A stretch of DNA of 24,000 nt from Fidelibacterota bacterium (GTDB lineage: Bacteria; Fidelibacterota; Marinisomatia; Marinisomatales; TCS55): positions 64,871 to 88,870 of the forward strand of contig JAAZYX010000033.1 of NCBI GenBank assembly GCA_014239435.1. The letters are read 5' to 3'. The notes beneath the pieces were generated by a model. That model worked only from the letters and a program-made list of their open reading frames with translations, was not told where the DNA came from and ran no database searches. The translations under genes and the position numbers were made by a program. This document shows positions 3,074 to 23,873 of the stretch, one piece after another (position 1 is the stretch's first letter; each line of letters opens with the position of its first letter).

Positions 3074-4580
3074 CCTTTTCCTGGGTTTCTGATTTTGGTT
3101 CGGTTTCAGTTTCCGATTCCGTTACTGATTCTTCCGAATCCGCTTCTTTTAATTGAATGATTGTTCCCTCAAGCTCTATCATTTCTTCACGCTTAAGGAT
3201 GCCGGTGTAGTTGTCTTTGACGACGGTCGGTGTAATTTGAATAATGAGATCGGTTGTTCTGTCTGCAACCGTAGTCCCTGTAAAAAGTTTATTTCCAAGA
3301 AGTGGAATCTTATTTAAATAAGGTACTTTATATTCAGTGACCGTTTTGTCTTTGCTAATCAATCCGCCAATAATAATAGATTCCCCATCCCGTACTCTAA
3401 TCGTCGTTGAAGATAGTCTGCTTTTGACTCGGGGAATGTTATTGTCCGGCCCAATGAATTCAAAAATGGAGGATACTTCAGGCTCAACCCTAACCGTAAT
3501 GTAGCCATCCGTATTTACTTTTGGATTGATAGTCAGTTTAATTCCGACTTCTTCCCGCTGCACCTGAACCTGACCTCCGACACCGCCTGAACTCAAGATA
3601 TACGGAACAATGTCAATCATTTTGATATAGGCTTCTCTTCCATTTAAAGTAACCAATTTAGAATTCGCTAAAACCTGCGCCTTATTTTCCTTCATCAGGA
3701 AATCAAGCGTCACATCGAAAGCAGTAAGCTGGCGACTGAATTTTGTTGGCAAAACGCTTTGATCACTTTCATCGGTAAAGTACAGCCGATTAAACGGCAT
3801 ATCCGAAGGGAGCTGCTCAAACGGCATGCCGGAATATTCTTCCACAACCCCCGTACCGTCCTCATTTGCAGATTGGCCTAATCCGGGCACCACACTTCCG
3901 GCCCCGGTTACACCGTGCGGCGGTTTTCCGCTTTCCGCGAGAATGCTTGTGTATTTTGCCAGTTTGGACCAATCAATGCCTGCCTTTTCTTCTTCATCCA
4001 AGGCCACTTCAATCAGCCGGGTTTCTAGCATGATTTGAATCGCGGGAATATCAATTTCACGGATCACTTCTTCAATTTCTGCTATCTTTTTGGGTGACGC
4101 GTTCACCAAAAGTTTATTACCAGATACGTCTACCTGAATTTTATCCGTTAAATCCTTTAGCAATTCTTTTATTTCTATGGCGTCGGCATATTTCAGTTCA
4201 ACTACATGGGATGTTATTCCGACCTCTTCCACTAATTTTTTTGGATCCGCGATCAAAAAGGAATTTCCCACAACTTCGTAACTAAGCCCTACTGCTCGAA
4301 CTACTAAGTTTATCGCCTGTTCAATCGGCACATCATCCAAATGGATTGTAATTTTATCCTGCCGGTTTACATTCGGGCCGGTAACAATATTGTACCCGCT
4401 TTCATTCGCGAGGATAGCAAGAATGCTCGGTAAAAATGCATCTTCTGCATGGATAGTAACCAATGTGGGTTCCAAGGCCTCCTTTGCGGAAACGGTACCA
4501 ATCGTTTTATCTGTCTTCTCCTGAGCCGCTAAACAGCTAACCAGCATGCAAGCTAGCAGTATCGTCATCAACCATTTCAT
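3054..4580 (-). CDS. pilQ: Type IV pilus secretin PilQ (short form, no obvious AMIN domains) with an acidic C-terminal tail.
   Basis: The secretin C-domain is recognisable: LVTLNGREAYIKMIDIVPY, STTIRVRDGESIIIGGLISKDKTVTEYKVPYLNKIPLLGNKLFTG...DRTTDLIIQITPTVV. I prefer the ATG at 4580 (MKWLMTILLACMLVSCLAAQ signal peptide). It has GAGGAGAG about 9 nt upstream and abuts the upstream stop at 4582. The track start at 4619 would add 13 non-signal residues. The gene sits directly after pilMNOP. Confidence 0.85.
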   Translation of the reverse strand: MKWLMTILLACMLVSCLAAQEKTDKTIGTVSAKEALEPTLVTIHAEDAFLPSILAILANESGYNIVTGPNVNRQDKITIHLDDVPIEQAINLVVRAVGLSYEVVGNSFLIADPKKLVEEVGITSHVVELKYADAIEIKELLKDLTDKIQVDVSGNKLLVNASPKKIAEIEEVIREIDIPAIQIMLETRLIEVALDEEEKAGIDWSKLAKYTSILAESGKPPHGVTGAGSVVPGLGQSANEDGTGVVEEYSGMPFEQLPSDMPFNRLYFTDESDQSVLPTKFSRQLTAFDVTLDFLMKENKAQVLANSKLVTLNGREAYIKMIDIVPYILSSGGVGGQVQVQREEVGIKLTINPKVNTDGYITVRVEPEVSSIFEFIGPDNNIPRVKSRLSSTTIRVRDGESIIIGGLISKDKTVTEYKVPYLNKIPLLGNKLFTGTTVADRTTDLIIQITPTVVKDNYTGILKREEMIELEGTIIQLKEADSEESVTESETETEPKSETQEKDESDEE

Positions 4581-4581
4581 A

Positions 4582-5112
4582 TCAATATTCTCTCCTCTGC
4601 CCGTTTTTTGAGGTGACATCCTCTTCTACACTAAGTCCAGAAACCTGATAATGTATTTCTTTATTTTCTGAGATAATGACGACTTCCTCAGAATCAATCC
4701 AAACGACTTCTCCATTAGCAACAGAATCACCAACCGTAACCACAAAATTCTTATCTCGATAATTCACGATGGCTCTTTGGGTGGATCCGTCGATAATTGC
4801 GGTTATGCGAAGTTTCCCGCTTTTGCGATACCGCATCGGCCTTCCATATGCATCCGTAAGGTACAATACATTTGTAAGGCGCATCGGCTCTTCTTCCAGA
4901 GCAAATTGAAATTCACTTCTGTTTAACAGCCGTGTTTCTAAAAATTCAATCACCTGTTCCAGTTCTTCATCCGTTCCGAATTGAATCTGTTCCGCCCGTT
5001 CCTTTGCACCGGTCCATTTTTTATTCAACGGATATACTTTGGAAGCCATAATTCCAAGAGAAAGCGTGCTCATAATCAGGAGTATAACCCAGACTGTTCT
5101 GTCCCTGCTCAC
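4582..5112 (-). CDS. pilP: PilP-like pilus assembly protein: an N-terminal membrane anchor plus a C-terminal beta domain.
   Basis: 176 aa with a GTG start in a GTGA overlap with the pilO stop. The TM segment is VWVILLIMSTLSLGIMA. The C-terminal motif TVGDSVANGEVVWIDSEEVVI is typical of PilP/GspC HR-type domains. Its position between pilO and pilQ supports the call. The assignment rests mostly on position. Confidence 0.6.
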   Translation of the reverse strand: MSRDRTVWVILLIMSTLSLGIMASKVYPLNKKWTGAKERAEQIQFGTDEELEQVIEFLETRLLNRSEFQFALEEEPMRLTNVLYLTDAYGRPMRYRKSGKLRITAIIDGSTQRAIVNYRDKNFVVTVGDSVANGEVVWIDSEEVVIISENKEIHYQVSGLSVEEDVTSKNGQRREY

Positions 5113-5678
5113 GATGATATTCCTTTTGATTTCACCAATGTTAAAGTTGACAGATGCAGTTCAACAATCTGCTCTTTAAGATCGCCTTCATCGGTAGTCG
5201 TTTTTACACGTTCTATTCCGTTTTTCACCAGAAATTCATCAATCGTAATTAATCTGGGAGACCGTTCAATTTCAGCGATAAATTTCCCCAATTGATCAAA
5301 ATCACACTTTAATAGCAATTCATACGGAGCACTATAATAGTTGCCTTTTTTCTCACGCGGCTTTGGTTTGATATTCATAAGCGTTACGCCAAGATTATTC
5401 ATCATTTCCGTCAAATTCTGTAAAAAAGGCATGGATGCATCTTCAGCAATAGAATCTGCCATACTAATTGCCAAATTTTCATCAAACAAGGTGTACACTC
5501 TGTCAAGCTTGCTGGCTAAAATCTGAGCGCTGATTAGCTGTTCGTTCAATTCTTCCTGTTCATCTTCCAAGTCCATCATGGTTACGGGATGGTTTCCAAT
5601 CGAAAACTTGAAATTGAGCCAGAAAGCAATGGATAATCCAATAAGCCCGAAGAATAGAATGGTGTTTCTTTGCTTCAT
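5109..5678 (-). CDS. pilO: PilO-like type IV pilus biogenesis protein.
   Basis: 189 aa with an ATGA overlap with the pilN stop. It has one N-terminal TM (ILFFGLIGLSIAFWL), a coiled-coil-like segment, then a GspM/PilO-like ferredoxin-type C-domain. The gene order is pilM-N-O. Confidence 0.65.
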   Translation of the reverse strand: MKQRNTILFFGLIGLSIAFWLNFKFSIGNHPVTMMDLEDEQEELNEQLISAQILASKLDRVYTLFDENLAISMADSIAEDASMPFLQNLTEMMNNLGVTLMNIKPKPREKKGNYYSAPYELLLKCDFDQLGKFIAEIERSPRLITIDEFLVKNGIERVKTTTDEGDLKEQIVELHLSTLTLVKSKGISS

Positions 5679-6271
5679 GATGACTTCGGCTTTCCGCCGC
5701 CGGGCTTTAATTTGGCTTCAATTCTGAATTCATAAATATCTTGTCCCCGCACTTGTTTACGCGATCCCTGATCAAATTTAATCCTGCTGAAATTATTTGA
5801 AAATTCACGGTTATTTTTTAGTGTATTAATAAAATTGTACACAATTCCAAACTTTTGCTGTTCATCCTGATAAATAACGCCAATCCCTTCAATAATCATT
5901 TTATTATTGCGGTATTTAAGTCCGGTTATCGCCATATCCTCGGGAGTCATTTCACCTAATAACTCAAGATAGCGAGCCCACAAGTACCGGTTTCTTTCTA
6001 AATCCGCTAACGCAATAATGTCATCCTTTGAAAGGTTTTTACCCTTTTTCCGAAGATTATTGATGTCTTCTTTTACCAGAGCTATTTCGGATTTTTTCTG
6101 ATCAATCAGGGCACGGTATCCATGTCCTATCATCCAAACACCGATGTTCGAACCCAGCAAAAGAATAACAATGATTCCAAACATGCTCCACCTTACACGG
6201 TCTCGCCAGACTTCAATCCGAGCCTCTTTCGTTTCGGACTGGTTTAGGTTGATGGTGATAAACTTATTCAC
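5675..6271 (-). CDS. pilN: PilN-like fimbrial assembly protein.
   Basis: 198 aa with a GTG start in a GTGA overlap with the pilM stop. The N-terminal ITINL motif resembles the PilM-binding INLLP peptide of PilN. One TM follows (MFGIIVILLLGSNIGVWMI), then a periplasmic domain. Confidence 0.7.
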   Translation of the reverse strand: MNKFITINLNQSETKEARIEVWRDRVRWSMFGIIVILLLGSNIGVWMIGHGYRALIDQKKSEIALVKEDINNLRKKGKNLSKDDIIALADLERNRYLWARYLELLGEMTPEDMAITGLKYRNNKMIIEGIGVIYQDEQQKFGIVYNFINTLKNNREFSNNFSRIKFDQGSRKQVRGQDIYEFRIEAKLKPGGGKPKSS

Positions 6272-7323
6272 GCAACTATTCCTCCCCGAATGGCAAGCCC
6301 AACCGCAACACAGTATTGGCCGGGATTAGGAATGTCCTGCCCTTCTGTGCCTTCCAGAGCCGCCAAGGGATTAAATACTTCCACATCAATATTCAGCTTA
6401 CTTTGAATATAGTCGCCAATGCCGGGAGTGCCGGCGCCACCTCCGGTGAGATAGATCTTTTGAAAGAAGCTTTGGTTGGTTGTTTTGGCATAATATCTAA
6501 GGGATCTCCGAACATCTTCCACCAAATTGTCAAAGACCGTTCTCTGTGCTTCCGCCAAGCCAATTTCCTGAGATCCATTCGATTGGTTGAACGCATCAAC
6601 CCCGTCTTTGTACAGTTCATCCTGTGCCGTTACATAATCCATTTTTCGGGCATCGGATAATCCCTTTACAAAATGGTGCCCGCCCACTGGAATGTCTCTT
6701 GTAAAGAAAGAATCCTTTTTTCCCCAGACCACCAAGGAACTGGAAACAGCGCCAATGTCCAACAAAACAATTACGCCATCTTCGGGAAAATCCTGATCGA
6801 GTGCAAATGAATTTGAAAGTGCAATTGGATCGGTATCCACTATGCCGGGCTTGAATCCTGCCTCCTTTAATAAATCTAAATGGCCATTCAGCACGCGCTT
6901 GGTACATGCCACCATTCCAACATCAATTTTGTCCACTTCTTTCGGATTCTGTCCAAAAATCTGAAAATCAATAACCGCATCTGTGCCATCCATTGGAATG
7001 TGTTTCCTCGCTTCAAATGTAAGCGCCGAATGCAGCTCCTCAGTTGCCATGTCCATCGTCATAATTTGGCGGACACTCACATTGGTGCCATTAATATTGC
7101 TCACAAGATTTCGCGCCCGTTTAGGATTGACCTTTTGCTGCTTCAGGATTTCCTTAATCGCCATCACAACGATAGGCCGGCTTACTTCCTCCGGATCAAA
7201 TGCTTTATGTTGTTCAGGGATGAGTCGTTGCGAAGCGTTAATCAGTTTATATCCGCCGGACCGCAATTTTTCAACGGTTACTGTTTTGATATACTGTCTG
7301 CCTACATCCAATCCAAGAATCAT
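6268..7323 (-). CDS. pilM: PilM, the actin-like ATPase-fold type IV pilus assembly protein.
   Basis: 351 aa. It shows MILGLDVGRQYIKTVTVEK (phosphate-1-like), VLLDIGAVSSSLVVW and IYLTGGGAGTPGIGDYI, the typical FtsA/PilM actin-fold motifs. The start overlaps the upstream stop by 1 nt. Confidence 0.9.
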   Translation of the reverse strand: MILGLDVGRQYIKTVTVEKLRSGGYKLINASQRLIPEQHKAFDPEEVSRPIVVMAIKEILKQQKVNPKRARNLVSNINGTNVSVRQIMTMDMATEELHSALTFEARKHIPMDGTDAVIDFQIFGQNPKEVDKIDVGMVACTKRVLNGHLDLLKEAGFKPGIVDTDPIALSNSFALDQDFPEDGVIVLLDIGAVSSSLVVWGKKDSFFTRDIPVGGHHFVKGLSDARKMDYVTAQDELYKDGVDAFNQSNGSQEIGLAEAQRTVFDNLVEDVRRSLRYYAKTTNQSFFQKIYLTGGGAGTPGIGDYIQSKLNIDVEVFNPLAALEGTEGQDIPNPGQYCVAVGLAIRGGIVA

Positions 7324-9440
7324 TAGTCCGACTCCCCGCTTCGTGTGGGAACTTCGCTGTAACTTTTCAAAACCAATTTCATTCCTCCGTCAGCACCGGT
7401 CGTGTTGGGGAAATTTGGCGGAGGATAAAAATCACTGAAATTGAAATCATAATGATAACTCTTATCGTATCCGATCCAGTAATTCGCATAGCTTCCAGGA
7501 GGATTCCGTTTCATGAAGCCCCGTAAATTTTGTGTAACGGAACCGTATAACTTTATCGTTCCTCGTAAGTCATTGGATGTGGATTGCTGGGTGGTTGAAG
7601 TCGGATTTCTAAAAGTCCCGCGGCCGTCTGCTTTTGAGGTGGCCGGACTTGAGGCGTAATACGGCGCTTGAGTTGCCGTATAGTATCCATTTTCTGCCGC
7701 CCCCGGAACTGAGTTCTGCCAGTAATGCGCTACAAAGGAATCATGCATTGCAATAATACCAGCATTGATAATGATATCTTGACCATATGCCCGATTTTTT
7801 GCACCATTCTCTGAGGTATTTGCGATGATTACATTTCCGCCTGAAACAAGTCCAAGGCGATTGGGCGTACCGTACACAACCTCTCCTGTGTTTTGATTTG
7901 AATCCGTATAAATAATATCATCTATCAACCAAATATTATTCCAAACTCTGTCAATAATTGTATGATCGTCCTGCCGTCTGTATTCCGTATAATTATCCGT
8001 TACAATCGTAAACTGTCCATCAACTTCTCCATGCACTCTCACCTGTCCATCCTTTACAAAAATCACAGCGCGGTCTTTATGGAATGTCGTCCAATTCATG
8101 ATATAATCTGTTCCATTCGGAGGTTCAAAATCGAAATGGTGAAATCCGGTTGACTGGCACACACTTGTTCCATCATCTGCGTGATTATGAAAAAACCCGA
8201 AATGATTAAATTGTTCAGATGCCATTCCGGTCCGATGAGATAACTGGACAGATTCACCCTCCACAAAACCGCCGGTAAAAAACCCACCCTGTTCCTGATA
8301 GTCCACTTTAAAAATATAATCACCGCTGCTGGTGGATTTTCCGGTTATGACTGAAATCCAATATTTATAACTCGTGTCCACAGAGGATATGACAATGGTG
8401 TCGCCGATACTGTATCCGTTGAGAACGTCGTCAACGCCATCGCCGTCGGAATCGTAATCGCTTAAAAATACCGAATCCACAAATCCGTATCCGGTGGTAT
8501 TGCTAAACGGCAAATCAACACCGATTTTCCCATCATTCAATCCGCTCACGGTATTGTCCTCATCCCACGTGTACGACAAGGTCGGCTGTCCATCTTCGGT
8601 CACTGGAGGAATGGCATACGCCCATTGAGCCACTTTAAATCCACCGGTGATAAACTCAATCTCAGTCATGATAAGCGAATCCTTAATGGCGCCTCTCCAC
8701 AGCAGCTCATCCGCTGTGAATACATAATCCGCAGAATTTTTAACACGCTCAACAGTATTGGTAGGTGGATATGAAATTACATCTGCTGAGTCGTCGTAGG
8801 TTGCATTCGCGAACGATGTTTCTTCACAGTTGCCCATATTAATTCCAAGGGAAGCATTCACTTGTCCGTTAAATTTCGGGCAGCCGTAAGCACTCATGGT
8901 TATTTCGCCGTTTGTATGGACAACACCCTCAAGGGTGTCAGATGCGCCAAATGTTACTGTACCGCTCGTGTACGGTCCGCCGCCGGGTTCTTCTGAATTG
9001 GTGAAATACATAAATTTTGAAAAATCCTCCGCAACAAGATTCACTTCCGCCTTCCGTTCAATTTCGACGGATTTCCCCTCACTATTTTGAAATTCTGCGG
9101 TACCCCATGCGCTTGCGTAAAAATAGGTCTTCCCATAATCATCTACATATGAAGAACACACTACATCATGGTAAAAACCGTCAAATTCAGGGCTTTCACT
9201 AAACTTCACTTTTTGCGTAGCCAACACCATGACCTGATCATATAAATACGGTAATTGCGGCATGCCTACTTTATTGATTCCTGTCTCTGCTAGCAGCAGT
9301 GCAGACGATTCCGCAAAACGATATTTTTCGACAACCGATGCCGAAAGTGAATACCGTAAATAGGCAATGGTTAGAAGAAGGCTGATCATGGTAAAAATGA
9401 CAGCCGTAATGGTGGCTGTACCTTTTTGAAACTGTTTCAT
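7323..9440 (-). CDS. Large PilX_N-type (pseudopilin-like anchor) pilus-associated protein; candidate tip or adhesin component.
   Basis: 705 aa with an ATGA overlap with the upstream minor pilin. The N-terminus MKQFQKGTATITAVIFTMISLLLTIAYL resembles the PilX N-terminal hydrophobic helix but lacks a G/F-T-L-I-E cleavage motif. The body is rich in G/N/T/Y strand-like repeats (GNVIIANTSENG, DIIINAGIIAM, VFVKDGQVRVHGEVDGQFTIV). It also has an EF-hand-like acidic loop, SDYDSDGDGVDDVLNG. Confidence 0.7.
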   Translation of the reverse strand: MKQFQKGTATITAVIFTMISLLLTIAYLRYSLSASVVEKYRFAESSALLLAETGINKVGMPQLPYLYDQVMVLATQKVKFSESPEFDGFYHDVVCSSYVDDYGKTYFYASAWGTAEFQNSEGKSVEIERKAEVNLVAEDFSKFMYFTNSEEPGGGPYTSGTVTFGASDTLEGVVHTNGEITMSAYGCPKFNGQVNASLGINMGNCEETSFANATYDDSADVISYPPTNTVERVKNSADYVFTADELLWRGAIKDSLIMTEIEFITGGFKVAQWAYAIPPVTEDGQPTLSYTWDEDNTVSGLNDGKIGVDLPFSNTTGYGFVDSVFLSDYDSDGDGVDDVLNGYSIGDTIVISSVDTSYKYWISVITGKSTSSGDYIFKVDYQEQGGFFTGGFVEGESVQLSHRTGMASEQFNHFGFFHNHADDGTSVCQSTGFHHFDFEPPNGTDYIMNWTTFHKDRAVIFVKDGQVRVHGEVDGQFTIVTDNYTEYRRQDDHTIIDRVWNNIWLIDDIIYTDSNQNTGEVVYGTPNRLGLVSGGNVIIANTSENGAKNRAYGQDIIINAGIIAMHDSFVAHYWQNSVPGAAENGYYTATQAPYYASSPATSKADGRGTFRNPTSTTQQSTSNDLRGTIKLYGSVTQNLRGFMKRNPPGSYANYWIGYDKSYHYDFNFSDFYPPPNFPNTTGADGGMKLVLKSYSEVPTRSGESD

Positions 9441-10063
9441 GATTCCATCCCCTGTTTTGTTACTTCAAAAAGAGAAATATATTTATTCGGCATAAAAACA
9501 GACCTCCTTACCCTGATTTTCGTATCCATCGGATTTTGATCGCTCACGTCCGTTTCCACAGAAAAAATTAATTCCAAATTCCAGGTAGCTTCGGCATATC
9601 GTTGAAGCTCAGGTCTTTCTTCCATTCTTTGATCTGCCTTAAATGTTTCAAGCCTTACAATCCGCTGGCCGTTATCACGAAAGCGGCCTTTCCGGGGAAA
9701 TCCGAGCGTACCTCCAACAGGATTTCTTCCATCAAACTGAATCCCATCTAGCGCATGTCCGGAAATGACGATATTGGATTCATTACCAAGTTTATCATAC
9801 TGGTAAAGACGAAGCCGAGCATAGCCATTGGCAAAATCTCTCTCGATAAATCTTGATGTACTAATTTCGTGCATTATTTCCCGCATCACCGCCTGCCCAT
9901 ACTGGCGGACTTCGAGCAAAACCGAATCATTCTGATAATGAAATAGAATAGCCCGCACGCCCATTGAAAGACCCACCACCATTATTCCAATCACTGTGAT
10001 GGATGTAACCAATTCAATGAGAGTCAATCCAGAAGAGCTGCGTTTCACCCAAGAAAACTTCAT
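9437..10063 (-). CDS. Minor (pseudo)pilin with a prepilin-type N-terminal cleavage/methylation motif.
   Basis: 208 aa. MKFSWVKRSSSG|LTLIELVTSITVIGIMVV matches the G-[FL]-T-L-I-E class III signal. It has an ATGA overlap with the upstream gene. Confidence 0.8.
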   Translation of the reverse strand: MKFSWVKRSSSGLTLIELVTSITVIGIMVVGLSMGVRAILFHYQNDSVLLEVRQYGQAVMREIMHEISTSRFIERDFANGYARLRLYQYDKLGNESNIVISGHALDGIQFDGRNPVGGTLGFPRKGRFRDNGQRIVRLETFKADQRMEERPELQRYAEATWNLELIFSVETDVSDQNPMDTKIRVRRSVFMPNKYISLFEVTKQGMES

Positions 10064-10512
10064 AGTGGAAACTCCAGCATCACCATTTCAACTTCGCGCG
10101 TTTTCGTAACGTTATGTCTCGCAGATGTAAAATCTTGCCAGGTAATCCATGCTTTAAATCTATACCGATCCATTCCGCCGGTCGAATCAGCTGGTTCTTT
10201 GTGAATAGGGTCGTAGAAAATTTTCGCTTCGATTCTATCCGGATTTTCATCGTCCCCTAAAAGGAAAACCTTTTCACCATCTAAATTTCCGCCCCTCTCA
10301 ATACCGGATAAGCGTCCGTCGGCAATGCGGCCTTTCATGCCTTCCACAAAACTTAGTAATTCTTCAGTGGCGCGCTCCCGAATCTCAAGTGCCTGCAGTT
10401 CTCCTCTGGCATGCACAGCGCCAAGCATCAATCCGAATGCCGCCACACTTACAATTATAACAGCAATCAGCACCTCGATGAAAGTAAACCCGGTTGAAGT
10501 TTTCAATTTCAT
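10060..10512 (-). CDS. Minor (pseudo)pilin with a prepilin-type N-terminal cleavage/methylation motif.
   Basis: 150 aa. MKLKTSTG|FTFIEVLIAVIIVSVAAFGL is a class III signal peptide. The start abuts the pilT stop. Confidence 0.8.
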   Translation of the reverse strand: MKLKTSTGFTFIEVLIAVIIVSVAAFGLMLGAVHARGELQALEIRERATEELLSFVEGMKGRIADGRLSGIERGGNLDGEKVFLLGDDENPDRIEAKIFYDPIHKEPADSTGGMDRYRFKAWITWQDFTSARHNVTKTREVEMVMLEFPL

Positions 10513-11565
10513 TTACAGAACTTTAGATTCAAACAGTTTAGGATTTTCGGCCAATCCAGCAGCCTGAGACCGATCAATCAGCGCCTGCGTTACAAGCCTT
10601 TGCAAATCCTGATCCAGTGTTTGCATCCCATCTACGCCTCCGGACTGCATTACAGATGGAATTTGGTAAATCCTATCCTCGCGAATCAGGTTTCGAATCG
10701 CAGTTGTCGCTATCAGGATTTCCAGCGCAGGGACTCTACTTTTGCCATCTTTTGACGGCAATAATTTTTGAGAAATAACGGCTTCTAAACTTTCGGACAG
10801 CATTGAACGAATTTGGCTTTTCTGACTTGCCGGAAAAATATCAATAATCCTATCCACCGCTTTTACCGAGCTGGATGTATGCAAAGTAGACAATACAAGG
10901 TGGCCCGTTTCAGCGGCTGTAAGCGCGAGTGAAATGGTATCGAGGTCACGCATTTCACCCACCAAAATCACATCCGGATCTTCACGAAGGGCCGCTCTTA
11001 ACGCATTTGCAAAACTGTGTGTCGTTAGTCCTAACTCTCTCTGGTTGATGAGGCATTGGCTTGAACGATGAAAATATTCAACCGGGTCTTCGATCGTAAT
11101 AATATGCTTTGATTTATTTTGATTGACATGATCCACCATGGCGGCAAGCGTCGTACTCTTTCCCGATCCGGTTGGACCCGTAAGGAGGACCAAGCCATTT
11201 TCAAGCATTGCTAAATTCGCAAGAACTGGCGGAAGACCGAGCTCTTCAAATCCTTTTGGGACTTCAGAAATTGTCCTGAATACGCCTGCAAGACCGCTGA
11301 TTTGGTGAAAGAAATTCACACGGAATCTTCCCTGACCATCTAATTTATAAGACAGGTCAATTTCCTTGTCTTCCCGGTAGCGGCTGATTTGATCTTCTTC
11401 CATTACTTGAGGAAGAATAGTTTCCATATCCGTTTCTTCTAAGGCTGGCATGTTCAACGGTTTCATTGTACCGTTAATCCGAACCATGGGTATGGACCCC
11501 GTACTTAAATGCAAATCCGACGCACCGCTATCGAGCGCGTACGTTAGTAATTCATTAATGTTCAT
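10513..11565 (-). CDS. pilT: Twitching-motility retraction ATPase PilT.
   Basis: 350 aa. It shows ASDLHLSTGSIPMVRINGTM, Walker A GPTGSGKSTT, IITIEDPVE, the Asp box LREDPDVILVGEMRD, and TGHLVLSTLHT (His box). Length and motifs are classic PilT. Confidence 0.95.
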   Translation of the reverse strand: MNINELLTYALDSGASDLHLSTGSIPMVRINGTMKPLNMPALEETDMETILPQVMEEDQISRYREDKEIDLSYKLDGQGRFRVNFFHQISGLAGVFRTISEVPKGFEELGLPPVLANLAMLENGLVLLTGPTGSGKSTTLAAMVDHVNQNKSKHIITIEDPVEYFHRSSQCLINQRELGLTTHSFANALRAALREDPDVILVGEMRDLDTISLALTAAETGHLVLSTLHTSSSVKAVDRIIDIFPASQKSQIRSMLSESLEAVISQKLLPSKDGKSRVPALEILIATTAIRNLIREDRIYQIPSVMQSGGVDGMQTLDQDLQRLVTQALIDRSQAAGLAENPKLFESKVL

Positions 11566-15686: not shown

Positions 15687-15878
15687 CTAGTTGCAGGTGA
15701 AGAATCCTTTGATGGCTAGGTACGGAATCAGGATGTACAAAATAGAATCTCTAATGAGGTAATAGAGGAAAAAGGCAGCGAGCACCACCCAGCCTTTTTG
15801 TTTGATCAGAAATTTATAGCCGCCCTCCCGCCGAATTGCACCCCATTCTTCCAGGAATCGAGGCCGGTAAAATGACAT
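15687..15878 (-). CDS. Small hypothetical membrane protein.
   Basis: 63 aa with two hydrophobic segments (WVVLAAFFLYYLI, ILYILIPYLAI). The start overlaps the upstream stop (TGATG) and the stop abuts the yifB start, which suggests co-translation in the operon. Confidence 0.5.
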   Translation of the reverse strand: MSFYRPRFLEEWGAIRREGGYKFLIKQKGWVVLAAFFLYYLIRDSILYILIPYLAIKGFFTCN

Positions 15879-16321
15879 CAGTCGTCGTCCGGTTTTATTT
15901 TATCGAATTTCATTTTTTCGTACTTGTCCCAGAGCGTTTCGCCGGAAGTTTGCTGAAAGCGGAACGCAAATGACATGGCCTCAAAAAATGGACGGTTCAC
16001 ATATTCTTCGTGACTGTAATATTCATCAATCCACACAACAAACTGGCTGATTTCTTCTTCTTTGAGCTTGTCAAAAATACCGTAAACAAGTTCGGCCCTG
16101 TTCTCGTAATACCACGTTGTTACTTCATCATATCCGCGCTGCTTGATAAGATCCTGATGCGTTTCATACACTTGAGTCAAATAAGAAAAAAGGTAGAGTT
16201 CCTTTTCTCCCGGCGTCAGTGTTTTCCAGTATGCTACCGCTGGGGACAGTGTTTCGGGTACCGGTTTGTCCTGAGAAAATGCACACGTTGAGATCAACAA
16301 TAAACTTATGAGAATTCTCAT
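15878..16321 (-). CDS. Hypothetical secreted protein.
   Basis: 147 aa. It has a signal peptide MRILISLLLISTCAFSQ and an ATGA overlap with the ispG stop. I recognise no family. Confidence 0.65.
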   Translation of the reverse strand: MRILISLLLISTCAFSQDKPVPETLSPAVAYWKTLTPGEKELYLFSYLTQVYETHQDLIKQRGYDEVTTWYYENRAELVYGIFDKLKEEEISQFVVWIDEYYSHEEYVNRPFFEAMSFAFRFQQTSGETLWDKYEKMKFDKIKPDDD

Positions 16322-17403
16322 GATTCTTCTCCTTCTTCCGCGACCTCTTTTTCATAATCTGAGATCATTTCTTCCAATTTTTCCATGGCCGCCTCTTCGC
16401 TGACCTTTCCGATGTTTTCGCCTTTATAATACAAATGTCCCGCGCCTTTCCCAAAAGCAATTCCAAGATCGGTGTGTTCCGCCTCGCCTGGCCCGTTTAC
16501 CGCACAGCCCATCAGCGCAACACTCATGGGGGTTTTCACTTTTTTGAATCTTTCTTCCATGTCACCGGCAATCTTGAAGAGATCCACTTCGAGCCGTCCG
16601 CAGGTCGGGCAGGCAACGACTGTAACGCCTTTGGTCGCGAGCCCAAGTGATTTCAATATTTCATAACCGCAATGCACTTCTTCCACGGGATCGTCCGTAA
16701 GGCTTACGCGAATTGTGTCGCCAATCCCTTCCTTTAAAAGTGTTCCCAATCCAACGGCAGATTTGATGCTGCCTGCTTTGGTCGGCCCAGCTTCGGTCAC
16801 GCCCAAGTGTGTGGGATAATCAAATTCTTTGGCGAATAATCGGTAGGCATCAATCATCAGATTTACGTCCGATGCTTTCAGGGAAACAATAATATCTTCA
16901 AAATCGTGCTCTTTACAAATATCTATATGGCGCCTTGCGCTTTCCACCATTGCCTCCGCAGTTGGATAGCCGTATTTCTCGATTAAATCCCGCTCAAGAC
17001 TGCCGGCATTTACGCCGATACGAATCGGAAGATTGGCGCCTTTTACTTTTTCGAGCACTTCCTTCACGCGCGCCTTTCCACCGATATTCCCGGGATTGAT
17101 TCGAATCTTATCCGCGCCGGCATCCACGGCCTCGAGTGCCATACGATAATTAAAATGAATATCGGCGACTAGGGGAACGGTCATGTGTTTTTTGATTTCC
17201 GGCAGCGCCTTGGCAGCTTTTTCATCGGGAACCGTGATCCGGATAATTTGGCAGTCTGCTGCTTCCAAACGATCCACTTCCTTCAGCGTCGCCTTGATGT
17301 CATGCGTCTTGGTGGTTGTCATGGACTGCACCGGAATCGCAGCGCCACCGCCGATAGGAACATCGCCTACCATTACTTTTCGTGTTTCGTGCCGTTCAAT
17401 CAT
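16318..17403 (-). CDS. ispG: 4-hydroxy-3-methylbut-2-en-1-yl diphosphate synthase (MEP pathway).
   Basis: 361 aa. It shows VGDVPIGGGAPIPVQSMT-like (VGDVPIGGGAAIPVQSMTTT), IRINPGNIG, VACPTCGR and MGCAVNGPGE. These are the [4Fe-4S] Cys motifs characteristic of GcpE/IspG. Confidence 0.95.
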   Translation of the reverse strand: MIERHETRKVMVGDVPIGGGAAIPVQSMTTTKTHDIKATLKEVDRLEAADCQIIRITVPDEKAAKALPEIKKHMTVPLVADIHFNYRMALEAVDAGADKIRINPGNIGGKARVKEVLEKVKGANLPIRIGVNAGSLERDLIEKYGYPTAEAMVESARRHIDICKEHDFEDIIVSLKASDVNLMIDAYRLFAKEFDYPTHLGVTEAGPTKAGSIKSAVGLGTLLKEGIGDTIRVSLTDDPVEEVHCGYEILKSLGLATKGVTVVACPTCGRLEVDLFKIAGDMEERFKKVKTPMSVALMGCAVNGPGEAEHTDLGIAFGKGAGHLYYKGENIGKVSEEAAMEKLEEMISDYEKEVAEEGEES

Positions 17404-18595: not shown

Positions 18596-20182
18596 TCAGG
18601 AACCTGCCTGATGCGCAATAATCAGCCAGCCTTTGGCTTCATTATCTTCCGGGTTCAACTCAAGGCTACGGTTCCACGCCGCTTTGGCAAGCTGCGTTTC
18701 CTGCATTTTCCAATACGTTACTCCCATGCCGAGATACGCTTTAGAATCGGATGGTTTGAGTTCCACCACTTCTTGAAATGCAGCCAGCGATTCTTTATAC
18801 ATGCTACGCTCGCGATAGGTTTTCCCAAGCGTTCGCATCGCGCCTGAAAGCCATGCGCTTGTATTAGAATTGATGCTCATTGCTTTGTCAAAAGCAGACC
18901 TTCCCTGCGCTGACTTGCCAATCCTGTTGTATTCTACTGCCAGCACATAATACGTCTGCGGTAGCAGCATGCGCACCAGCGGATGGTGCGGATCGTAGTG
19001 TAGCAAATCTTCCCACGCATTGGCGGCGCGACCCCATTCGGAGGCATTAAAATAGCTGAGTCCCTGCATGTACCGCGCATCCACATTGTAGGGATCCAGA
19101 TAAACGACATCGCTGTAGCCGAGAGCCGAATACACATATTTCCCCTGATTATAATAGAGGTTTGCCAGCGCCATATGGGATTCCTTGTTTTTTGGATCCA
19201 TATGGATAGCGTTCTGGTACGAAGTTTTTGCGTCGTCAATATCACCGAGGTCTTCGTGTCCTTTTCCCTGAAGATATACAAATCCGCTATGGTCAGGATG
19301 CTGTTCGGACGCTGATTTGGCGAGCATGATGGCTTGTTGTGTGTCGCCTGATTTCAATTTACTTCGGATTGCCATCATCTGTTGCGCGGGACCATCCGGA
19401 TGTTTTGTAGCTGAGCGTGACAACACTTCGCTGCTCATATTTTTCCCGCGGGATGATCCTAAAAAGGATGCCATTGCGTTCAATGTTTGATAATGGTCCG
19501 GATTGAGATCGAGCGCTTCTTCGTAAGAATGCTGCGCTTTCCCGAGATCGCCGACACGCGCATACAGCGAACCGAGAAAATAATGGTAATCCGGATTCAG
19601 CGGTTGTTTGACCAAGAGCCGAAAATACACATCTTTCGCTTGTTCAAATTCCTGTACCGATTCGTAATGCAGTCCAAGTTGACGCTGGAGGCGGATATTC
19701 TGCGGTTCTTTGTCCGCAGCTTTTTCATAATCCGCAGTGGTAAATGCTTGTCGGGAATCGAGCCGAACAAGTCGGCGTTCTTCCGGGCCTTTCAAGTACG
19801 ATGTTGCGCGGGTTAATTGATCAGAACTAACATTGAGCGCTTCCGTGATCGTGAATAATTCATCTGTAAATTCCGTAACACTAATTTTTGGCGGACGTGC
19901 ACGGTCAAGCGCTTCTTTTTTGGGTGCGGATTTCTTTTTCTTTGCTTTTTTCTTTTTGGTCGGTCGTTTCTTCTTCTTCTTTTTCGCTTTGCCCTTTTTC
20001 TTTTTCTTTGAAGATTTTTTCTTGGACGATTTCTTTTTCTTAGAGGATTTTTTCTTCTTTTTCTTCTTCTTCTTTTTGGTAGTTTGGGCAGATACGGCAG
20101 TGCTGAACATCGGCAAAACTCCGCCGATAATTACGGTTCCGATTAGGATTCGGATGAGCCAGGCTGTGAGTAGTCGCTTCAT
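18596..20182 (-). CDS. TPR-repeat protein with an N-terminal signal or anchor and a poly-lysine tract.
   Basis: 528 aa. The N-terminus MKRLLTAWLIRILIGTVIIGGVLPMFSTAVSA|Q is followed by residues 36-89, which hold 39 Lys in 54 residues. Many TPR units follow (AKDVYFRLLVKQPLNPDYHYFLGSLYARVGDLGKAQHSYEEALDLNPDH and others). Confidence 0.85.
   Translation of the reverse strand: MKRLLTAWLIRILIGTVIIGGVLPMFSTAVSAQTTKKKKKKKKKKSSKKKKSSKKKSSKKKKKGKAKKKKKKRPTKKKKAKKKKSAPKKEALDRARPPKISVTEFTDELFTITEALNVSSDQLTRATSYLKGPEERRLVRLDSRQAFTTADYEKAADKEPQNIRLQRQLGLHYESVQEFEQAKDVYFRLLVKQPLNPDYHYFLGSLYARVGDLGKAQHSYEEALDLNPDHYQTLNAMASFLGSSRGKNMSSEVLSRSATKHPDGPAQQMMAIRSKLKSGDTQQAIMLAKSASEQHPDHSGFVYLQGKGHEDLGDIDDAKTSYQNAIHMDPKNKESHMALANLYYNQGKYVYSALGYSDVVYLDPYNVDARYMQGLSYFNASEWGRAANAWEDLLHYDPHHPLVRMLLPQTYYVLAVEYNRIGKSAQGRSAFDKAMSINSNTSAWLSGAMRTLGKTYRERSMYKESLAAFQEVVELKPSDSKAYLGMGVTYWKMQETQLAKAAWNRSLELNPEDNEAKGWLIIAHQAGS
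19916..20077 (-). repeat. Low-complexity AAA/AAG (Lys) codon tract inside the TPR gene.
   Basis: The plus strand is an almost pure pyrimidine T/C run (ttcttcttctttttc...). It encodes KKKKKKKKKKSSKKKKSSKKKSSKKKKKGKAKKKKKKRPTKKKKAKKKKSAPKK on the minus strand. Confidence 0.9.
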
Positions 20183-20255: not shown

Positions 20256-21443
20256 TTACAATTTAGATACCGGAATCCATTTCGATTCCACTTTCCCGGA
20301 TTCGCCGCTGCTCGTCCATGCCAGAAAAATCTTTCTTCCGCTGCGTGCAATAACCGGGTAACCGCTGGCCCTTCCAGCATCAATTTCTGCCGCAATAAAC
20401 GGCTTTCCCAAACGACCATTAATCGAAACGGTCCGGAATACAATATGGGTATTTTCTTCCCCATATTCCATCCAGCTAGCCAATGCTCTACGTCCATCCA
20501 GCCACATGAGGTCCGTCCTGCCGATCGGCATTCCGCCGTCCAGCCGCTTCGGTTCCTGAAAAGTTTTTCCGTTATCATTCGATAAAGCAAACAGAACCTG
20601 CGGTGTTTCATTTGGTGATGTAAACCAGACAGATGCCAGCGAGTTTCCTCTTGAAGCGAGTTTCGGACCATTCACCGGACAGCCGGCAATCTTCCAATTG
20701 TCAGCATGAATCGGCGCCGGTTTTGTCCATTCTTTTTCGTTCAGCCGCACAACATACATATCTCGGATTTCCGTATCAGATCTGTCCCTGTACGCCAACA
20801 CAATTCCGTCTTTAGTTTCGACCGCCGATGTCGGGCAGCATTCGCAAACCTTGTCATCGAGCAGCGTTTCCGGCCCGAGTTTTCCGGATGCATCCAACGT
20901 TGTCGAAAACAAATTCATGGCGCCGTAATCGTGATCACCGTGGCCGGCGGTCATATTTCGCCCGTCCAGCCAAGCCAAAGCTAAAGAACCGTCAGGATTT
21001 GTGAAAAATGATACAAATCCGTGTTCTCCCTTTTTCCCGTCTCTGTGCGCCGTTATGGAAGACGTCCATGTGTGCCCGCGGTCAAATGACTGAGACACTT
21101 TCACATCGTAATCGTAAGGTCCGGTTCCGCTTTTTTGGGGCCAGTGCGCCGCAAAATTGTTTTCCCCGAAAAAGTAAATAGACGGAAAATCAGCCCAGTT
21201 TACAAAATAGTCTTCGCCTGAAGTAATCGTAACCGGCTCAGTCCATTGGGATCCTGCGTATTCAGACATTTTCAGGCTGAATTTTTCTCCCAACGGCTCA
21301 AACCAGCACACAGCAAATCCGCGGTCGGTTTCCGTGATATTCGGATACCGGCTGCCGGCACCTGTCGGAGCATCGGTTGAAGACCCGGCCAAAAGAATTT
21401 GGAAAAGTACCGGGATCAGAATGAGCCTCCGACCCCGATTCAA
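20256..21443 (-). CDS. Secreted BNR/Asp-box (sialidase-like) beta-propeller protein with conserved-looking Cys clusters.
   Basis: 395 aa. The first codon is TTG (no in-frame ATG until about residue 59), giving the signal peptide MNRGRRLILIPVLFQILLAGSS. Asp-box motifs are SFDRGHTW and SNDNGKTF. Cys clusters are DDKVCECCPTS and IAGCPVNGP. Confidence 0.8.
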   Translation of the reverse strand: MNRGRRLILIPVLFQILLAGSSTDAPTGAGSRYPNITETDRGFAVCWFEPLGEKFSLKMSEYAGSQWTEPVTITSGEDYFVNWADFPSIYFFGENNFAAHWPQKSGTGPYDYDVKVSQSFDRGHTWTSSITAHRDGKKGEHGFVSFFTNPDGSLALAWLDGRNMTAGHGDHDYGAMNLFSTTLDASGKLGPETLLDDKVCECCPTSAVETKDGIVLAYRDRSDTEIRDMYVVRLNEKEWTKPAPIHADNWKIAGCPVNGPKLASRGNSLASVWFTSPNETPQVLFALSNDNGKTFQEPKRLDGGMPIGRTDLMWLDGRRALASWMEYGEENTHIVFRTVSINGRLGKPFIAAEIDAGRASGYPVIARSGRKIFLAWTSSGESGKVESKWIPVSKL

Positions 21444-21458
21444 GTTTACAATAATGGC

Positions 21459-21794
21459 TTACTCCTTGCCGGGGATTTTACAACACATGTCCAGCTTGGC
21501 ATATGCCTCTTTGTTTGCCGGAGTATCGTTCGCATCATATCCGGCGCCGGCAATGGCCTTTTCAATTGCCGCCATATCAAGCACGCCTGCTTCATATACA
21601 ACTTTGCCGACTTTCTTATCGTCATCAATTTCGATGCTTACAAAACCTTTCAGCCCTGACAATGCATTTTCAATATTCATGGAACACATGCCGCACTGCA
21701 TTGTGCTTAGTGCTACATCGGCTGTTTTATTTTTCTCTCCGCATGCAGAAATTATCATGGCCGCTGCTGCAATTAGAATTAGGGATTTTTTCAT
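21459..21794 (-). CDS. Heavy-metal-associated (HMA) domain lipoprotein, MerP/CopZ-like and periplasmic.
   Basis: I prefer the ATG at 21794, with AGGAAA upstream. This gives MKKSLILIAAAAMIISAC (lipobox ISAC), then the HMA motif STMQCGMCSMNIENAL (M-x-C-x-x-C) on a ferredoxin-like fold. A C-terminal MCC pair is also present. The track ORF start at 21833 is a TTG that overlaps the upstream gene. Confidence 0.85.
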   Translation of the reverse strand: MKKSLILIAAAAMIISACGEKNKTADVALSTMQCGMCSMNIENALSGLKGFVSIEIDDDKKVGKVVYEAGVLDMAAIEKAIAGAGYDANDTPANKEAYAKLDMCCKIPGKE

Positions 21795-21822: not shown

Positions 21823-22812
21823 TCACTCCTCAAATTTAAAAAGAGTGAATGATTTTCGAACGCTTAGAGATCCACCCCAAACATCCGTTTTACTCGTTAC
21901 TTCTATTTCTTCCTGGCTCGTTACGCTCGTATTGAAATACACCGGAGAACGAGTAGAAACTGTTGCAAAATATCCGTTCTTCGTGAAGGTCAGACCGCCT
22001 CCGAGTTGCAAAACACTTCCACCGGAATTCGGCGCCTCTTCTCCATCCCAAATAGCCGGGTTTCGATATTGGCCAAGCAATTGGAAAAATGGAATCCCGC
22101 CCCAAAAGGATTTTGTCTGAATATAAACCAGCATCGCTCCGGAAAATTGTATTCCGGGCTTAAATCCGTACTCATTTGTTTCCAAAGGCACATCCACTTT
22201 CAACACGCCGCCCGGGAATATGGAACCGTCAGTCCGTCTGAAGTACTGGAATTCCGCATGACCTTTGACCACGCCTTCGCTCAAATTGAAATGCGTGTGG
22301 GATTCCCCGGCTTTCCCAAGTTTAAATGGATTTTCAGTCAAAGTATTGCTCGATGGAATAACGATTCCGCCGCCAATGAAAATCCGCTGGCCGGGGCCGA
22401 AAGTCGTATTCTCAAATAAATACCGAAGCGTAATTCGGGTATCCCCAAAACCAATTTTGTTTTCATCGCGGTGATGAATATTCGCGGCACGATAAAAATC
22501 CATGGATCTGTTTCCTGTCATAACATCTGCGCTCAAATTCCAATTATCGGAAAACCCGTAGGTTGCATTTATTTCCGCTAAACTTGAATTCAGATTTCCT
22601 TCGTGGTCGCCGCCGGATGCTTCCAGTTCGCTGTGCCACCATTCGATATTTTGCACCGTCATATTTGCACCAATGATAAGTTTTCCCTTATCTAAACCAA
22701 CTCCAGAATTGGCCGTCCCGACCGGGAGGCTTGGATTCGTTCAAAGAGGTCATTGGCCCCACAACAAAACAGACATAAAAAAAGGTATCAGATTTTTCAG
22801 CACACTTTTCAT
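21823..22812 (-). CDS. Predicted outer-membrane beta-barrel protein with two in-frame TGA codons (22750-22752 and 22741-22743). Candidate U-x-x-U selenoprotein; a nonsense-disrupted pseudogene is the alternative.
   Basis: The ATG at 22812-22810 overlaps the YdjM-like gene stop (ATGA) and has GAAGGGA 8 nt upstream. The reading is MKSVLKNLIPFFMSVLLWGQ-TGA-PL-TGA-TNPSLPVGTANSGVGLDKGKLIIGAN-MTVQNIEWW.... This is the same frame as the 279-aa track ORF (150 nt = 50 codons upstream). The track ORF alone has no signal peptide. The body has alternating aromatic and hydrophobic strands and a C-terminal FTLFKFEE, consistent with a roughly 300-aa OM barrel. Confidence 0.5.
22712..22730 (-). promoter_or_regulatory. 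SECIS-like RNA hairpin downstream of the two UGA codons.
   Basis: The mRNA GCCUCCC-GGUC-GGGA(C)GGC forms 7 bp (6 of them G:C) with one bulged C and an apical loop GGUC. The loop begins 17 nt after the second UGA and 26 nt after the first. The E. coli fdhF SECIS also presents a GGUC sequence at its apex, with essential G and U. I identified this by eye, not with a scoring model. Confidence 0.4.
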
Positions 22813-23345
22813 GCTGATAATCCCTTCAATTTATTTTTCCCTAACAAGATGAAAGCAATACCATTCATGGCGATTTCAAACCACAGCAATACTATGTTCT
22901 CAATGTAAAATGAGAAATATGGATCTCGAATCATTTCCCACACCGGTATCTGCCCTTTTTCCGGCTGAACCGGATACACATCAAAATTGATCGAGCTGAA
23001 CGGATACAGCCATTGAATTCCAACCGTGCGTGCCGTAATCCAATCGGTAACCAGATGAAGCATGGCACCCAGGAAAATTGCGAGTGAAACGGGTTTCATC
23101 CAGCTGAAGTTTGAAAACATTCCCAATCCCGTCATTCCTGAAAAAATGAATAACCAAAAAATTGGTGTATGCAAAATCGAATGATGCCCCGCCACCGTTG
23201 TAGACCAAATTCCATCCACATCCGGCAGAATAGATGCAATCAGTAACACAGGTAAAAACGGTGCAGCGGTCTGAGAGGAATTTTCCTTTTGATGAAGGGC
23301 ATTTCCCAATAGGTATCCGGACGCTATATGTGATGGAAGAAACAT
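22809..23345 (-). CDS. YdjM/DUF457-family membrane-bound metal-dependent hydrolase-like protein.
   Basis: 178 aa, polytopic. It has the family pattern H...ILPDVDGIW...GHHSILHTP plus a later HLVTDW. It starts 4 nt after the DUF4396 gene stop. Confidence 0.75.
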   Translation of the reverse strand: MFLPSHIASGYLLGNALHQKENSSQTAAPFLPVLLIASILPDVDGIWSTTVAGHHSILHTPIFWLFIFSGMTGLGMFSNFSWMKPVSLAIFLGAMLHLVTDWITARTVGIQWLYPFSSINFDVYPVQPEKGQIPVWEMIRDPYFSFYIENIVLLWFEIAMNGIAFILLGKNKLKGLSA

Positions 23346-23348
23346 GAT

Positions 23349-23873
23349 TTAATGGATGTGCCGGTATCCTTTTTTCACCATCATCAAATTAATCGGCCAT
23401 GCGGCAACAAATCCTGCCGTAAGCGCAAATGCCATTCCAATCCAAAGAATAGGGTCAAACAATCCTGCCTGCATGAATCCTGGTGTGTACACTTCCACCA
23501 GCACTTCCGCCGTTTCCATGAATACTATGCTCAATCCTTCGGCCAACAGCACCTGCTTGAAAGCATTGTTGAAAGAATATCCGTGTTTCAGGAGGGGTTT
23601 CATTCCGAGGATAAATCCAAATACAAACCCAAGAGAAACCGCCAACGCAATGGATGGTATGATAGCCAAGCCGAGCTTCATGGCAATTAGCATTCCTACT
23701 ATTTCGCCGAGCCCGCAGCCCATCAGACAGTGCAGCGTCGCTGATGTGGCAAGTTTTGCGTCTGAAATCTCTTCGCCTCCGTTGTGATGCTCATGATGTT
23801 CATGCCCTTCATGGTCATGATCGTTTTTGTCGTGATCATGATGATCGTGACTATGGTCGTGTTCTGATGTCAT
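23349..23873 (-). CDS. DUF4396-family membrane protein with an extremely His-rich N-terminal tail.
   Basis: 174 aa. MTSEHDHSHDHHDHDKNDHDHEGHEHHEHH has 13 His within residues 5-30. It is followed by TLHCLMGCGLGEIVGM (the HC-x2-GC-x-GE motif typical of DUF4396) and TM helices. AGGGA lies upstream of the ATG. Confidence 0.75.
   Translation of the reverse strand: MTSEHDHSHDHHDHDKNDHDHEGHEHHEHHNGGEEISDAKLATSATLHCLMGCGLGEIVGMLIAMKLGLAIIPSIALAVSLGFVFGFILGMKPLLKHGYSFNNAFKQVLLAEGLSIVFMETAEVLVEVYTPGFMQAGLFDPILWIGMAFALTAGFVAAWPINLMMVKKGYRHIH

Follow-up and report, generated by a model that had tools for sequence, protein, structure and literature searches.

A predicted outer-membrane beta-barrel with a very probable N-terminal UxxU selenocysteine pair, encoded in Marinimicrobia and represented by cysteine forms in Myxococcota

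The DNA analysed here, a 24,000-nucleotide stretch of a Fidelibacterota bacterium genome (contig JAAZYX010000033.1, positions 64,871 to 88,870; hereafter the window), carries on its minus strand a gene for an outer-membrane beta-barrel that is interrupted by two in-frame TGA codons, and which very probably encodes a genuine UxxU selenoprotein, with two selenocysteine (Sec) residues close to its mature N-terminus. The complete gene occupies 21823..22812 and contains 329 codons, two of them UGA taken here as Sec codons, before the terminal TGA (21825-21823). Its ATG (22812-22810) shares bases with the stop codon of the upstream YdjM-family gene, a TGA at 22811-22809, in an ATGA overlap, and a Shine-Dalgarno-like GAAGGGA on the same strand (22827-22821) stands 8 nt before this ATG. 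Codons 1-20 (22753..22812, minus strand) encode a signal peptide, MKSVLKNLIPFFMSVLLWGQ, equivalents of which precede the motif in all homologues, and the frame then proceeds through TGA, CCT, CTT, TGA and TNPSLPVGTANSGVGLDKGKLIIGAN to a methionine at 22662, exactly 50 codons downstream of the ATG, where the 279-residue open reading frame (ORF) begins. Both minus-strand UGA codons are read here as Sec: UGA1 is codon 21 (22752-22750) and corresponds to the first Cys of the CxxC motif in Cys homologues, and UGA2 is codon 24 (22743-22741) and aligns with the second Cys, being also the sole Sec position in a CxxU variant, L061. Both alternative frames are closed, and public gene calls retain only 21823-22662.

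The coding sequence immediately after the second UGA contains a hairpin of the selenocysteine insertion sequence (SECIS) type, GCCUCCC-GGUC-GGGA(C)GGC, at 22712..22730 on the minus strand, where it overlaps the codons for S-L-P-V-G-T-A. The 5' arm GCCUCCC lies at 22730-22724, the GGUC loop at 22723-22720 and the 3' arm GGGA(C)GGC, with one bulged C, at 22719-22712, so that the distance to the loop is 17 nt from UGA2 and 26 nt from UGA1. A first-pass annotation, made from the letters of the window, had described the ATG at 22812 with its ATGA overlap, the GAAGGGA element, the signal peptide, the two in-frame TGA codons, the 50-codon offset and the two loop distances, and every one of these details was confirmed on re-reading.

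A protein search of 5.8 billion sequences returned 23 clusters with 44-100% identity to the barrel, all of them called at or near the internal Met, lacking a signal peptide and labelled 'hypothetical'. The upstream DNA was read for those calls and for 11 loci in GTDB species genomes, of which 8 have Candidatus Marinimicrobia/Neomarinimicrobiota as their title and 3 'uncultured bacterium', and every one of the GTDB and marine metagenome loci has the order signal peptide-GQ-TGA-P-[LM]-TGA-xN[PL][ST]LPVG in the barrel frame, the stops in the motif being TGA without exception. The two codons between the TGAs vary synonymously, with Pro written as CCT, CCC, CCG or CCA and Leu as CTT, CTC or TTG, and outside the hairpin the entropy per column at codon positions 1, 2 and 3 is 0.42, 0.20 and 1.19 bits, a pattern that indicates a translated frame under purifying selection. 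The stretch of 26 codons between UGA2 and Met51 is likewise conserved as protein in the barrel frame while its third positions vary. Met51 itself is not conserved, homologues showing Leu, Thr or Phe in its place, and no homologue begins at the internal Met with a signal peptide of its own.

A metagenome scan contributed 60 further loci, the distant ones being 22-29% identical to the barrel and lying on high-GC soil and freshwater contigs, and the TGA pattern persists at that level of protein identity. Among the distant loci, TGA-x-x-TGA is found in L059, L062, L064, L065, L068, L070, L071, L073, L074 and L076, Cys-x-x-TGA in L061 only, and Cys-x-x-Cys at both positions in the metagenome loci L060, L066, L067, L069, L072, L075 and L077-L079. 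In total, 36 distinct TGA-bearing sequences share the arrangement of signal peptide, TGA-x-x-TGA (TGC-x-x-TGA in one of them), x-N-P-x-L-P-V-G and barrel, which amounts to 35 UxxU forms and 1 CxxU form, and CxxC is present in 9 distinct DNA sequences. The Cys-form family is large: one search returned more than 619 proteins, and a set reduced to 50% identity has 605 representatives. Its members are mostly Myxococcota, among them Melittangium boletus, Archangium, Labilithrix and Polyangiaceae; the sequence C-[A/P]-G-C-S-N-P-x-L is carried by 118/120 of the best Myxococcota relatives. When the marine and Myxococcota family profiles were aligned with hhalign, they matched with 98.6% probability (E = 8.6e-16) over 286 columns, in a register that pairs the residue following U2 with the one following Cys26. 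In these alignments, the two UGA positions form Sec/Cys pairs, the classical mark of a selenoprotein, at both sites and on both the DNA and the protein level, in agreement with the proposal that Cys or TGA should occupy each of them in homologues. About 107 family representatives retain an HHRxE motif, only about 19 of which also retain the N-terminal CxxC (P0148-P0296), and the remainder are mostly called from an internal start, two of them opening with 'NPNLPVG' or 'LPVG'. Since so few representatives retain CxxC and most are called from an internal start, Sec forms may be the majority of the barrel family.

The evidence for the hairpin is comparative. The GGUC loop is present in 36/36 distinct TGA forms and in 0/9 Cys-form DNA sequences, which lack the stem as well, and the four loop-proximal pairs are formed in every one of the 36 TGA-bearing sequences. 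The stem varies in a compensating manner, with the combinations CUCCC/GGGAG, CUUCC/GGAAG, UUACC/GGUGA, UUGCC/GGUAA and CUGCC/GGCAG, and double (compensatory) changes affect 4/7 stem pairs. Paired cells make up 81.7% of the alignment versus 72.5% in shuffles (0/500 reach the observed value), and the covariation score is 0.257 versus 0.098 in shuffles (again 0/500), with slid controls at no more than 0.086. Third-position entropy falls to 0.54 within the hairpin, versus 1.19 outside it. In addition, the peptide P-V-G, encoded by the CCG-GUC-GGN that forms the loop, is present in all Sec forms versus 8/118 Cys forms, the others having PTA, PSA, PVA and similar sequences at this site, so that this stretch of protein is dictated by the RNA. 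Conservation, covariation and strict co-occurrence with TGA, as read from the alignment, show that the hairpin is non-random, and its presence in all TGA orthologues answers one of the questions that the first-pass annotation had posed. Rfam has no family for the hairpin or for the rest of the window, and the lack of a SECIS match there at either threshold is uninformative. The Sec of the CxxU variant L061 is at the position with fdhF-like spacing, and no UxxC form was found among the homologues seen on DNA, and for these two reasons the sequences suggest the evolutionary order CxxC to CxxU to UxxU.

Many genes in the window end in TGA as their ordinary stop, the barrel gene and its upstream neighbour among them, and reassignment of the code was ruled out for this reason. 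Sec decoding in the lineage was examined by tblastn with E. coli SelA, SelB and SelD as queries against 733 kb of homologue-bearing loci, and a selA gene (456 aa) adjoining a selB gene (620 aa) was found at L012:12379-15611, on the Marinimicrobia metagenome-assembled genome contig CAJXWT010000003.1, approximately 6 kb downstream of a U-P-M-U barrel gene whose product is 62% identical to that of the window. Both match their NCBIfam equivalogs, SelA with 512.5 bits (cut-off 267.9) and SelB with 370.5 bits (cut-off 242.25). Four more TGA-interrupted genes of recognised (seleno)protein families, each with the TGA at the redox Cys of the family, are present on homologue contigs: a DsrE/TusD-like gene with VYT-U-GTC (L004:3655-4000), a YciW/AhpD-like gene with CPF-U (L010:872-1456, from a locus whose barrel is 86% identical to that of the window), an Rcas_1661/DsbG-like gene with YQ-U-PYC (L016:12435-13244) and a DsbD-C/Trx (thioredoxin)-like gene with W-U-FPC directly downstream of the barrel gene (L044:2475-2897). 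SelD has been reported in SAR406 single-cell genomes (PMC5029168). Three other candidate Sec sites were dropped: the MerT-like gene of L001 ends in TAG, the SQR-like gene of L004 has no interruption and falls short of the cut-off for the selenoprotein subtype, and the TGA at L026:4111, in an SgcJ/EcaC (NTF2-like) gene, occupies a position where a 151-aa paralogue in L001 has Trp (FA-W-AVV) and so resembles a TGG-to-TGA change or an error.

The mature protein would start as (Q)-U-P-L-U after signal-peptide cleavage at a presumed position, and would continue with a tether, TNPSLPVGTANSGVGLDKG (22684..22740, minus strand), and a 12-strand outer-membrane beta-barrel (21826..22683, minus strand). 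The barrel has NIHHR[D/N]E and H-x-H motifs that are invariant in both the marine and the Myxococcota halves of the family. AlphaFold2 models of the marine mature part (predicted local distance difference test, pLDDT, 79.8; predicted template-modelling score, pTM, 0.78) and of the Melittangium Cys form (pLDDT 82.8, pTM 0.81) are both 12-strand barrels, and in both the first approximately 20 mature residues, including the CxxC, are of low confidence, for which reason the N-terminal tether is likely flexible. The top Foldseek matches in the PDB were, for both models, FapF and the COG4313 channel 4RL8 (E 4e-10 to 5e-11, TM-score 0.6-0.73), so the models place the barrel in a COG4313/FapF-type fold class with 12 strands. 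Neither the Sec nor the Cys form of the barrel matches a family in Pfam-A (E <= 0.01) or in NCBIfam (June 2026; E <= 1). Even-stranded outer-membrane barrels have both termini on the periplasmic side, and by analogy the termini of this barrel would face the periplasm. A reading of the Sec/Cys as the lipidated residue of a lipobox was set aside as unlikely, as the marine '[WFKR]-G-Q-U' misfits and as most of the high-GC distant loci have an AxA signal-peptidase I site directly ahead of the first Cys/Sec; one Myxococcota member carries the UniRef name 'Lipoprotein'.

The barrel gene belongs to a string of genes on the minus strand. Directly upstream lies the gene for the YdjM-family inner-membrane protein (22809..23345), the one whose stop overlaps the barrel start and which is an up- or downstream neighbour at most marine loci, and beyond it, in the same gene string, the gene for a DUF4396 membrane protein with a His-rich N-terminus (23349..23873). 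Downstream lie an HMA-domain (MerP/CopZ-like) lipoprotein gene (21459..21794), a conserved same-strand neighbour at many marine loci, and directly downstream of this, again at many marine loci, a gene whose BNR/sialidase-like propeller product carries a VCECCP motif (20256..21443), followed by a gene for a TPR protein (18596-20182) in which the signal peptide leads straight into a low-complexity stretch of Lys and Ser, approximately 70 residues long (KKKKKKKKKKSSKKKK...). The one-strand order barrel-HMA-BNR-TPR, together with the YdjM-family protein, is conserved as a marine string. In four deep lineages, with barrels 29-66% identical to that of the window, a MerTP-like fusion, a CopZ-N-type Fe-S metallochaperone-like protein and an ArsR/SmtB regulator also accompany the barrel. 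In the high-GC lineages, the conserved partner of the barrel is a lipoprotein in which two CxxCHP-type Cys/His motifs precede a WCxxC thioredoxin domain. The gene for this lipoprotein is directly upstream of the barrel in 14 loci, namely 12 from metagenomes and those of the Myxococcota genomes L080 and L081 (examples are L080:6372-7004, L081:6351-7004 and L062:5171-5926), in Melittangium and Labilithrix it shares 4 nt (ATGA) with the start of the barrel gene, and in three loci (L070, L073 and L074) the barrel itself carries the thioredoxin domain as a C-terminal fusion.

Further features were recorded in and near the window. Just past the window end, the lineage has more genes of metal type: L001:1834-4688, on a sibling contig, encodes a Cys-rich 117-aa protein, a MerT-like 126-aa protein with a CC motif and a Cys-rich 90-aa protein, as well as a 270-aa protein that resembles another outer-membrane barrel. 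A type IV pilus/type II secretion-like cluster occupies 3054-11565 on the minus strand, with a secretin, PilO, PilN, PilM and a T2SSE ATPase, and also holds several unannotated ORFs. Finally, IspG/GcpE (361 aa) and an overlapping 147-aa ORF lie at 15878-17403 on the minus strand, and at L001:11266-12774 the corresponding region is called as a single 502-aa gene.

The explanation that we favour, with a probability of roughly 0.85, is that the gene encodes a 329-residue precursor of an outer-membrane barrel in which both UGAs are decoded as Sec through the single SECIS. The first-pass annotation had proposed a UxxU selenoprotein at the mature N-terminus of an envelope protein, and the conservation of the TGAs, the Cys pairs and the co-occurring hairpin all bear this out. 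A number of observations weigh on the other side. None of selA, selB, selC and selD was seen in the 24 kb of the window and the approximately 5 kb more that was read of its genome, no tRNA-Sec was found by ARAGORN or the Rfam tRNA models in the window or the scanned loci, and tblastn found no selD in the 733 kb of homologue loci. UGA1, at 26 nt from the loop, is beyond the E. coli optimum, and the decoding of both UGAs by one hairpin is something that we infer. The folding energy of the window hairpin has a z of -0.29 relative to shuffles (range over tests -0.47 to +0.58), and since this single-sequence fold is no better than shuffled sequence, the case for the hairpin has to be made from comparative evidence. 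The tether, with pLDDT below 50, takes no confident position in AlphaFold2. With respect to function, which is read from gene neighbourhood, the MerTP-like neighbours score 122-131 bits, below the NCBIfam cut-off of 180, no MerA or MerR was found in the loci examined, and the context in Myxococcota is thioredoxin, not mer. The earlier description of the surroundings as a soft-metal operon consequently stands in part: the mer/cop-like neighbours are there, but the sub-threshold MerTP-like scores and the missing MerA and MerR count against it.

Other explanations of the two in-frame TGAs fare much worse. A pseudogene or assembly error with two nonsense changes has a negligible probability, as only the two stops themselves speak for decay, but both TGAs recur in 35 distinct sequences from independent assemblies that span marine Marinimicrobia and high-GC soil and freshwater lineages, and their flanks are under purifying selection. 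It is also very improbable that the locus consists of two units, a leader ORF ending at the TGAs with a regulatory or terminator-like hairpin, and a barrel translated from Met 22662. Public gene callers do all start at or near this Met, and a hairpin behind a short ORF could be an attenuator, but a barrel made in this way would have no signal peptide, the Met is Leu, Thr or Phe in homologues, the 26 codons ahead of it are conserved as protein, and the Cys homologues are continuous through the motif. Somewhat less remote, though still improbable, is recoding of the UGAs as something other than Sec, for example by a non-canonical tRNA that inserts Cys or Trp, or SECIS-independent read-through; here it must be conceded that no tRNA-Sec or selD is present in the sequence scanned and that the evidence for Sec machinery comes from relatives and not from the window's own genome. 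This reading has to contend with the fdhF-type GGUC loop at fdhF-type spacing, found only where TGA is present, with selA and selB on the contig of a homologue, with the use of TGA to end neighbouring genes and the barrel gene itself, and with the reported SelD of SAR406 single-cell genomes (PMC5029168).

A different question is what a Sec-containing barrel would do. We consider a role in soft-metal handling to be conceivable, somewhat short of an even chance, and in the mechanism envisaged, the single fdhF-like SECIS with its GGUC loop would direct both UGAs to Sec from inside the coding sequence, and the exported mature protein would present (Q)-U-P-L-U on an approximately 20-residue flexible tether before the 12-strand barrel. 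The diselenol, or the dithiol in Myxococcota, would then bind a soft metal, for example Hg(II), Cu(I) or Cd(II), with very high affinity where the channel opens to the periplasm, metal could be passed between it and the neighbouring HMA lipoprotein or MerTP-like transporter, and the thioredoxin-type partner would hold the diselenol/dithiol site reduced. A competing view, to which we give a slightly smaller chance, accepts a real selenoprotein but takes the UxxU/CxxC to be a redox-active diselenide/disulfide cycled by the thioredoxin-type partner, or a channel gate, with peroxides, chalcogen oxyanions or envelope protein disulfides as possible substrates at the outer membrane. It gains from the thioredoxin-domain lipoprotein (WCxxC), since no other neighbour is conserved throughout the high-GC half of the family, from the Trx-like selenoprotein (WUFPC) directly downstream of the barrel in the marine locus L044, and from the observation that redox proteins with UxxC or CxxU motifs make up most of the known bacterial selenoproteins (PMC13188914). 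It is harder to reconcile with the marine barrels, which are found repeatedly beside HMA, MerTP-like, CopZ-like and ArsR genes and not beside thioredoxin, with the invariant His pairs in the barrel, and with the two metal-binding-looking CxxCHP-type motifs of the Myxococcota thioredoxin partner itself. The two roles are compatible, moreover, as the thioredoxin may merely keep a metal site reduced.

An extension of the soft-metal role, which we regard as speculative and rather unlikely, is that the diselenol tether captures soft metal at the outer membrane and hands it into a mer-like import route, from the barrel to the HMA lipoprotein and on to MerTP. Selenium would be used in such a route because selenolates out-compete environmental thiols for Hg(II) and methylmercury at oceanic trace levels. 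If this were true, mercury uptake would have its first outer-membrane component in this barrel, and the selenium and mercury cycles would be coupled in Marinimicrobia, which have been reported with hgcAB and as methylating mercury in low-oxygen seawater (PMC8163782). More generally, the mer/cop-like context in these abundant ocean bacteria would tie selenium use to soft-metal handling in the water column.

The selenoprotein assignment adds an unlisted, well-supported family to the approximately 119 prokaryotic ones, among the very few with two Sec and the very few located in the outer membrane. The public gene calls for the Sec form are all N-terminally truncated and 'hypothetical', and the functional end of the protein is for this reason invisible in databases. 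The coexistence of CxxC, CxxU and UxxU in one family is a natural experiment on SECIS evolution, in which the hairpin accompanies TGA only and imposes the peptide 'LPVG'. Finally, the function is testable, as Cys forms occur in Myxococcota that can be cultured, such as Melittangium boletus.

Comparison with known systems separates the standard parts of this gene from the novel ones. In the E. coli fdhF SECIS (MG1655 record), UGA(140) is followed after 18 nt by a GGUC loop, and the hairpin of the barrel gene, with GGUC 17 nt from UGA2, resembles it in spacing, in loop and in its place within the coding sequence, just 3' of the UGA. It differs in that one hairpin would serve two UGAs 9 nt apart, with a distance of 26 nt from UGA1 to the loop, in a stem of only 7 bp with a bulged C or no bulge, and in encoding part of a flexible tether (S-L-P-V-G) instead of a folded active site. 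With regard to the barrel, the best structural matches, the COG4313 channel Pput2725 (PDB 4RL8) and the amyloid secretion channel FapF (PDB 5O65/5O67), have only 10-15% identity to it, and it has no Pfam match to PF13557 (Phenol_MetA_deg) or any other family. The N-terminal segments of Pput2725 and FapF interact with the barrel lumen, but these proteins have neither a CxxC or UxxU N-terminus nor the NIHHR[DN]E and HxH motifs, nor a metal or thioredoxin gene context.

The barrel adjoins a MerTP-like fusion, CopZ-N-like, ArsR/SmtB and HMA (MerP/CopZ-like) lipoprotein genes at marine loci, and in this it recalls mer systems, of which Sec variants are known, in NF045683, a MerT/CopZ fusion selenoprotein, and in MerT with C/SxxU. 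It is not homologous to any Mer protein, however, and the canonical mer operon set (MerR, MerT/MerP and MerA) is not encoded together in the loci examined. Canonical mer operons are not known to have an outer-membrane component.

Among selenoproteins, one SECIS reportedly serves both UGAs in SelL, as Shchedrina et al. are said to have described in 2007. In a 2026 inventory of 119 prokaryotic selenoprotein families, UxxU is listed only in Prx-like/SelL, NF041115 metal-binding and FmdB-family proteins (PMC13188914), and thus the remark in the first-pass annotation that a UxxU pair on one hairpin would be unusual is fair, in that such pairs are rare yet have precedent. Two Sec two residues apart and the existence of Cys homologues are shared with SelL, NF041115 and FmdB, but their folds are thioredoxin-like, HMA and zinc-ribbon, respectively, in contrast to the 12-strand outer-membrane barrel predicted here, so that only the motif is common; the barrel matches none of the SelL, NF041115 or FmdB-type models in NCBIfam, and its UxxU is at the extreme N-terminus of an exported protein, unlike theirs. 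The only outer-membrane selenoproteins in the same inventory are the GSU2204/MtrB-PioB family and a TonB-dependent receptor type (PMC13188914). These (NF041027 and NF049945, the latter of FCYXU type) are, like this protein, outer-membrane barrels predicted with Sec, but their barrel families are different ones that have 1 Sec apiece, and neither NCBIfam model matches this barrel. Nothing like the barrel is present in Pfam, in NCBIfam or among the 119 families of the inventory. The decoding mechanism is thus the standard bacterial one, and what is new is the family, the double Sec and its placement at the first residues of an exported outer-membrane barrel.

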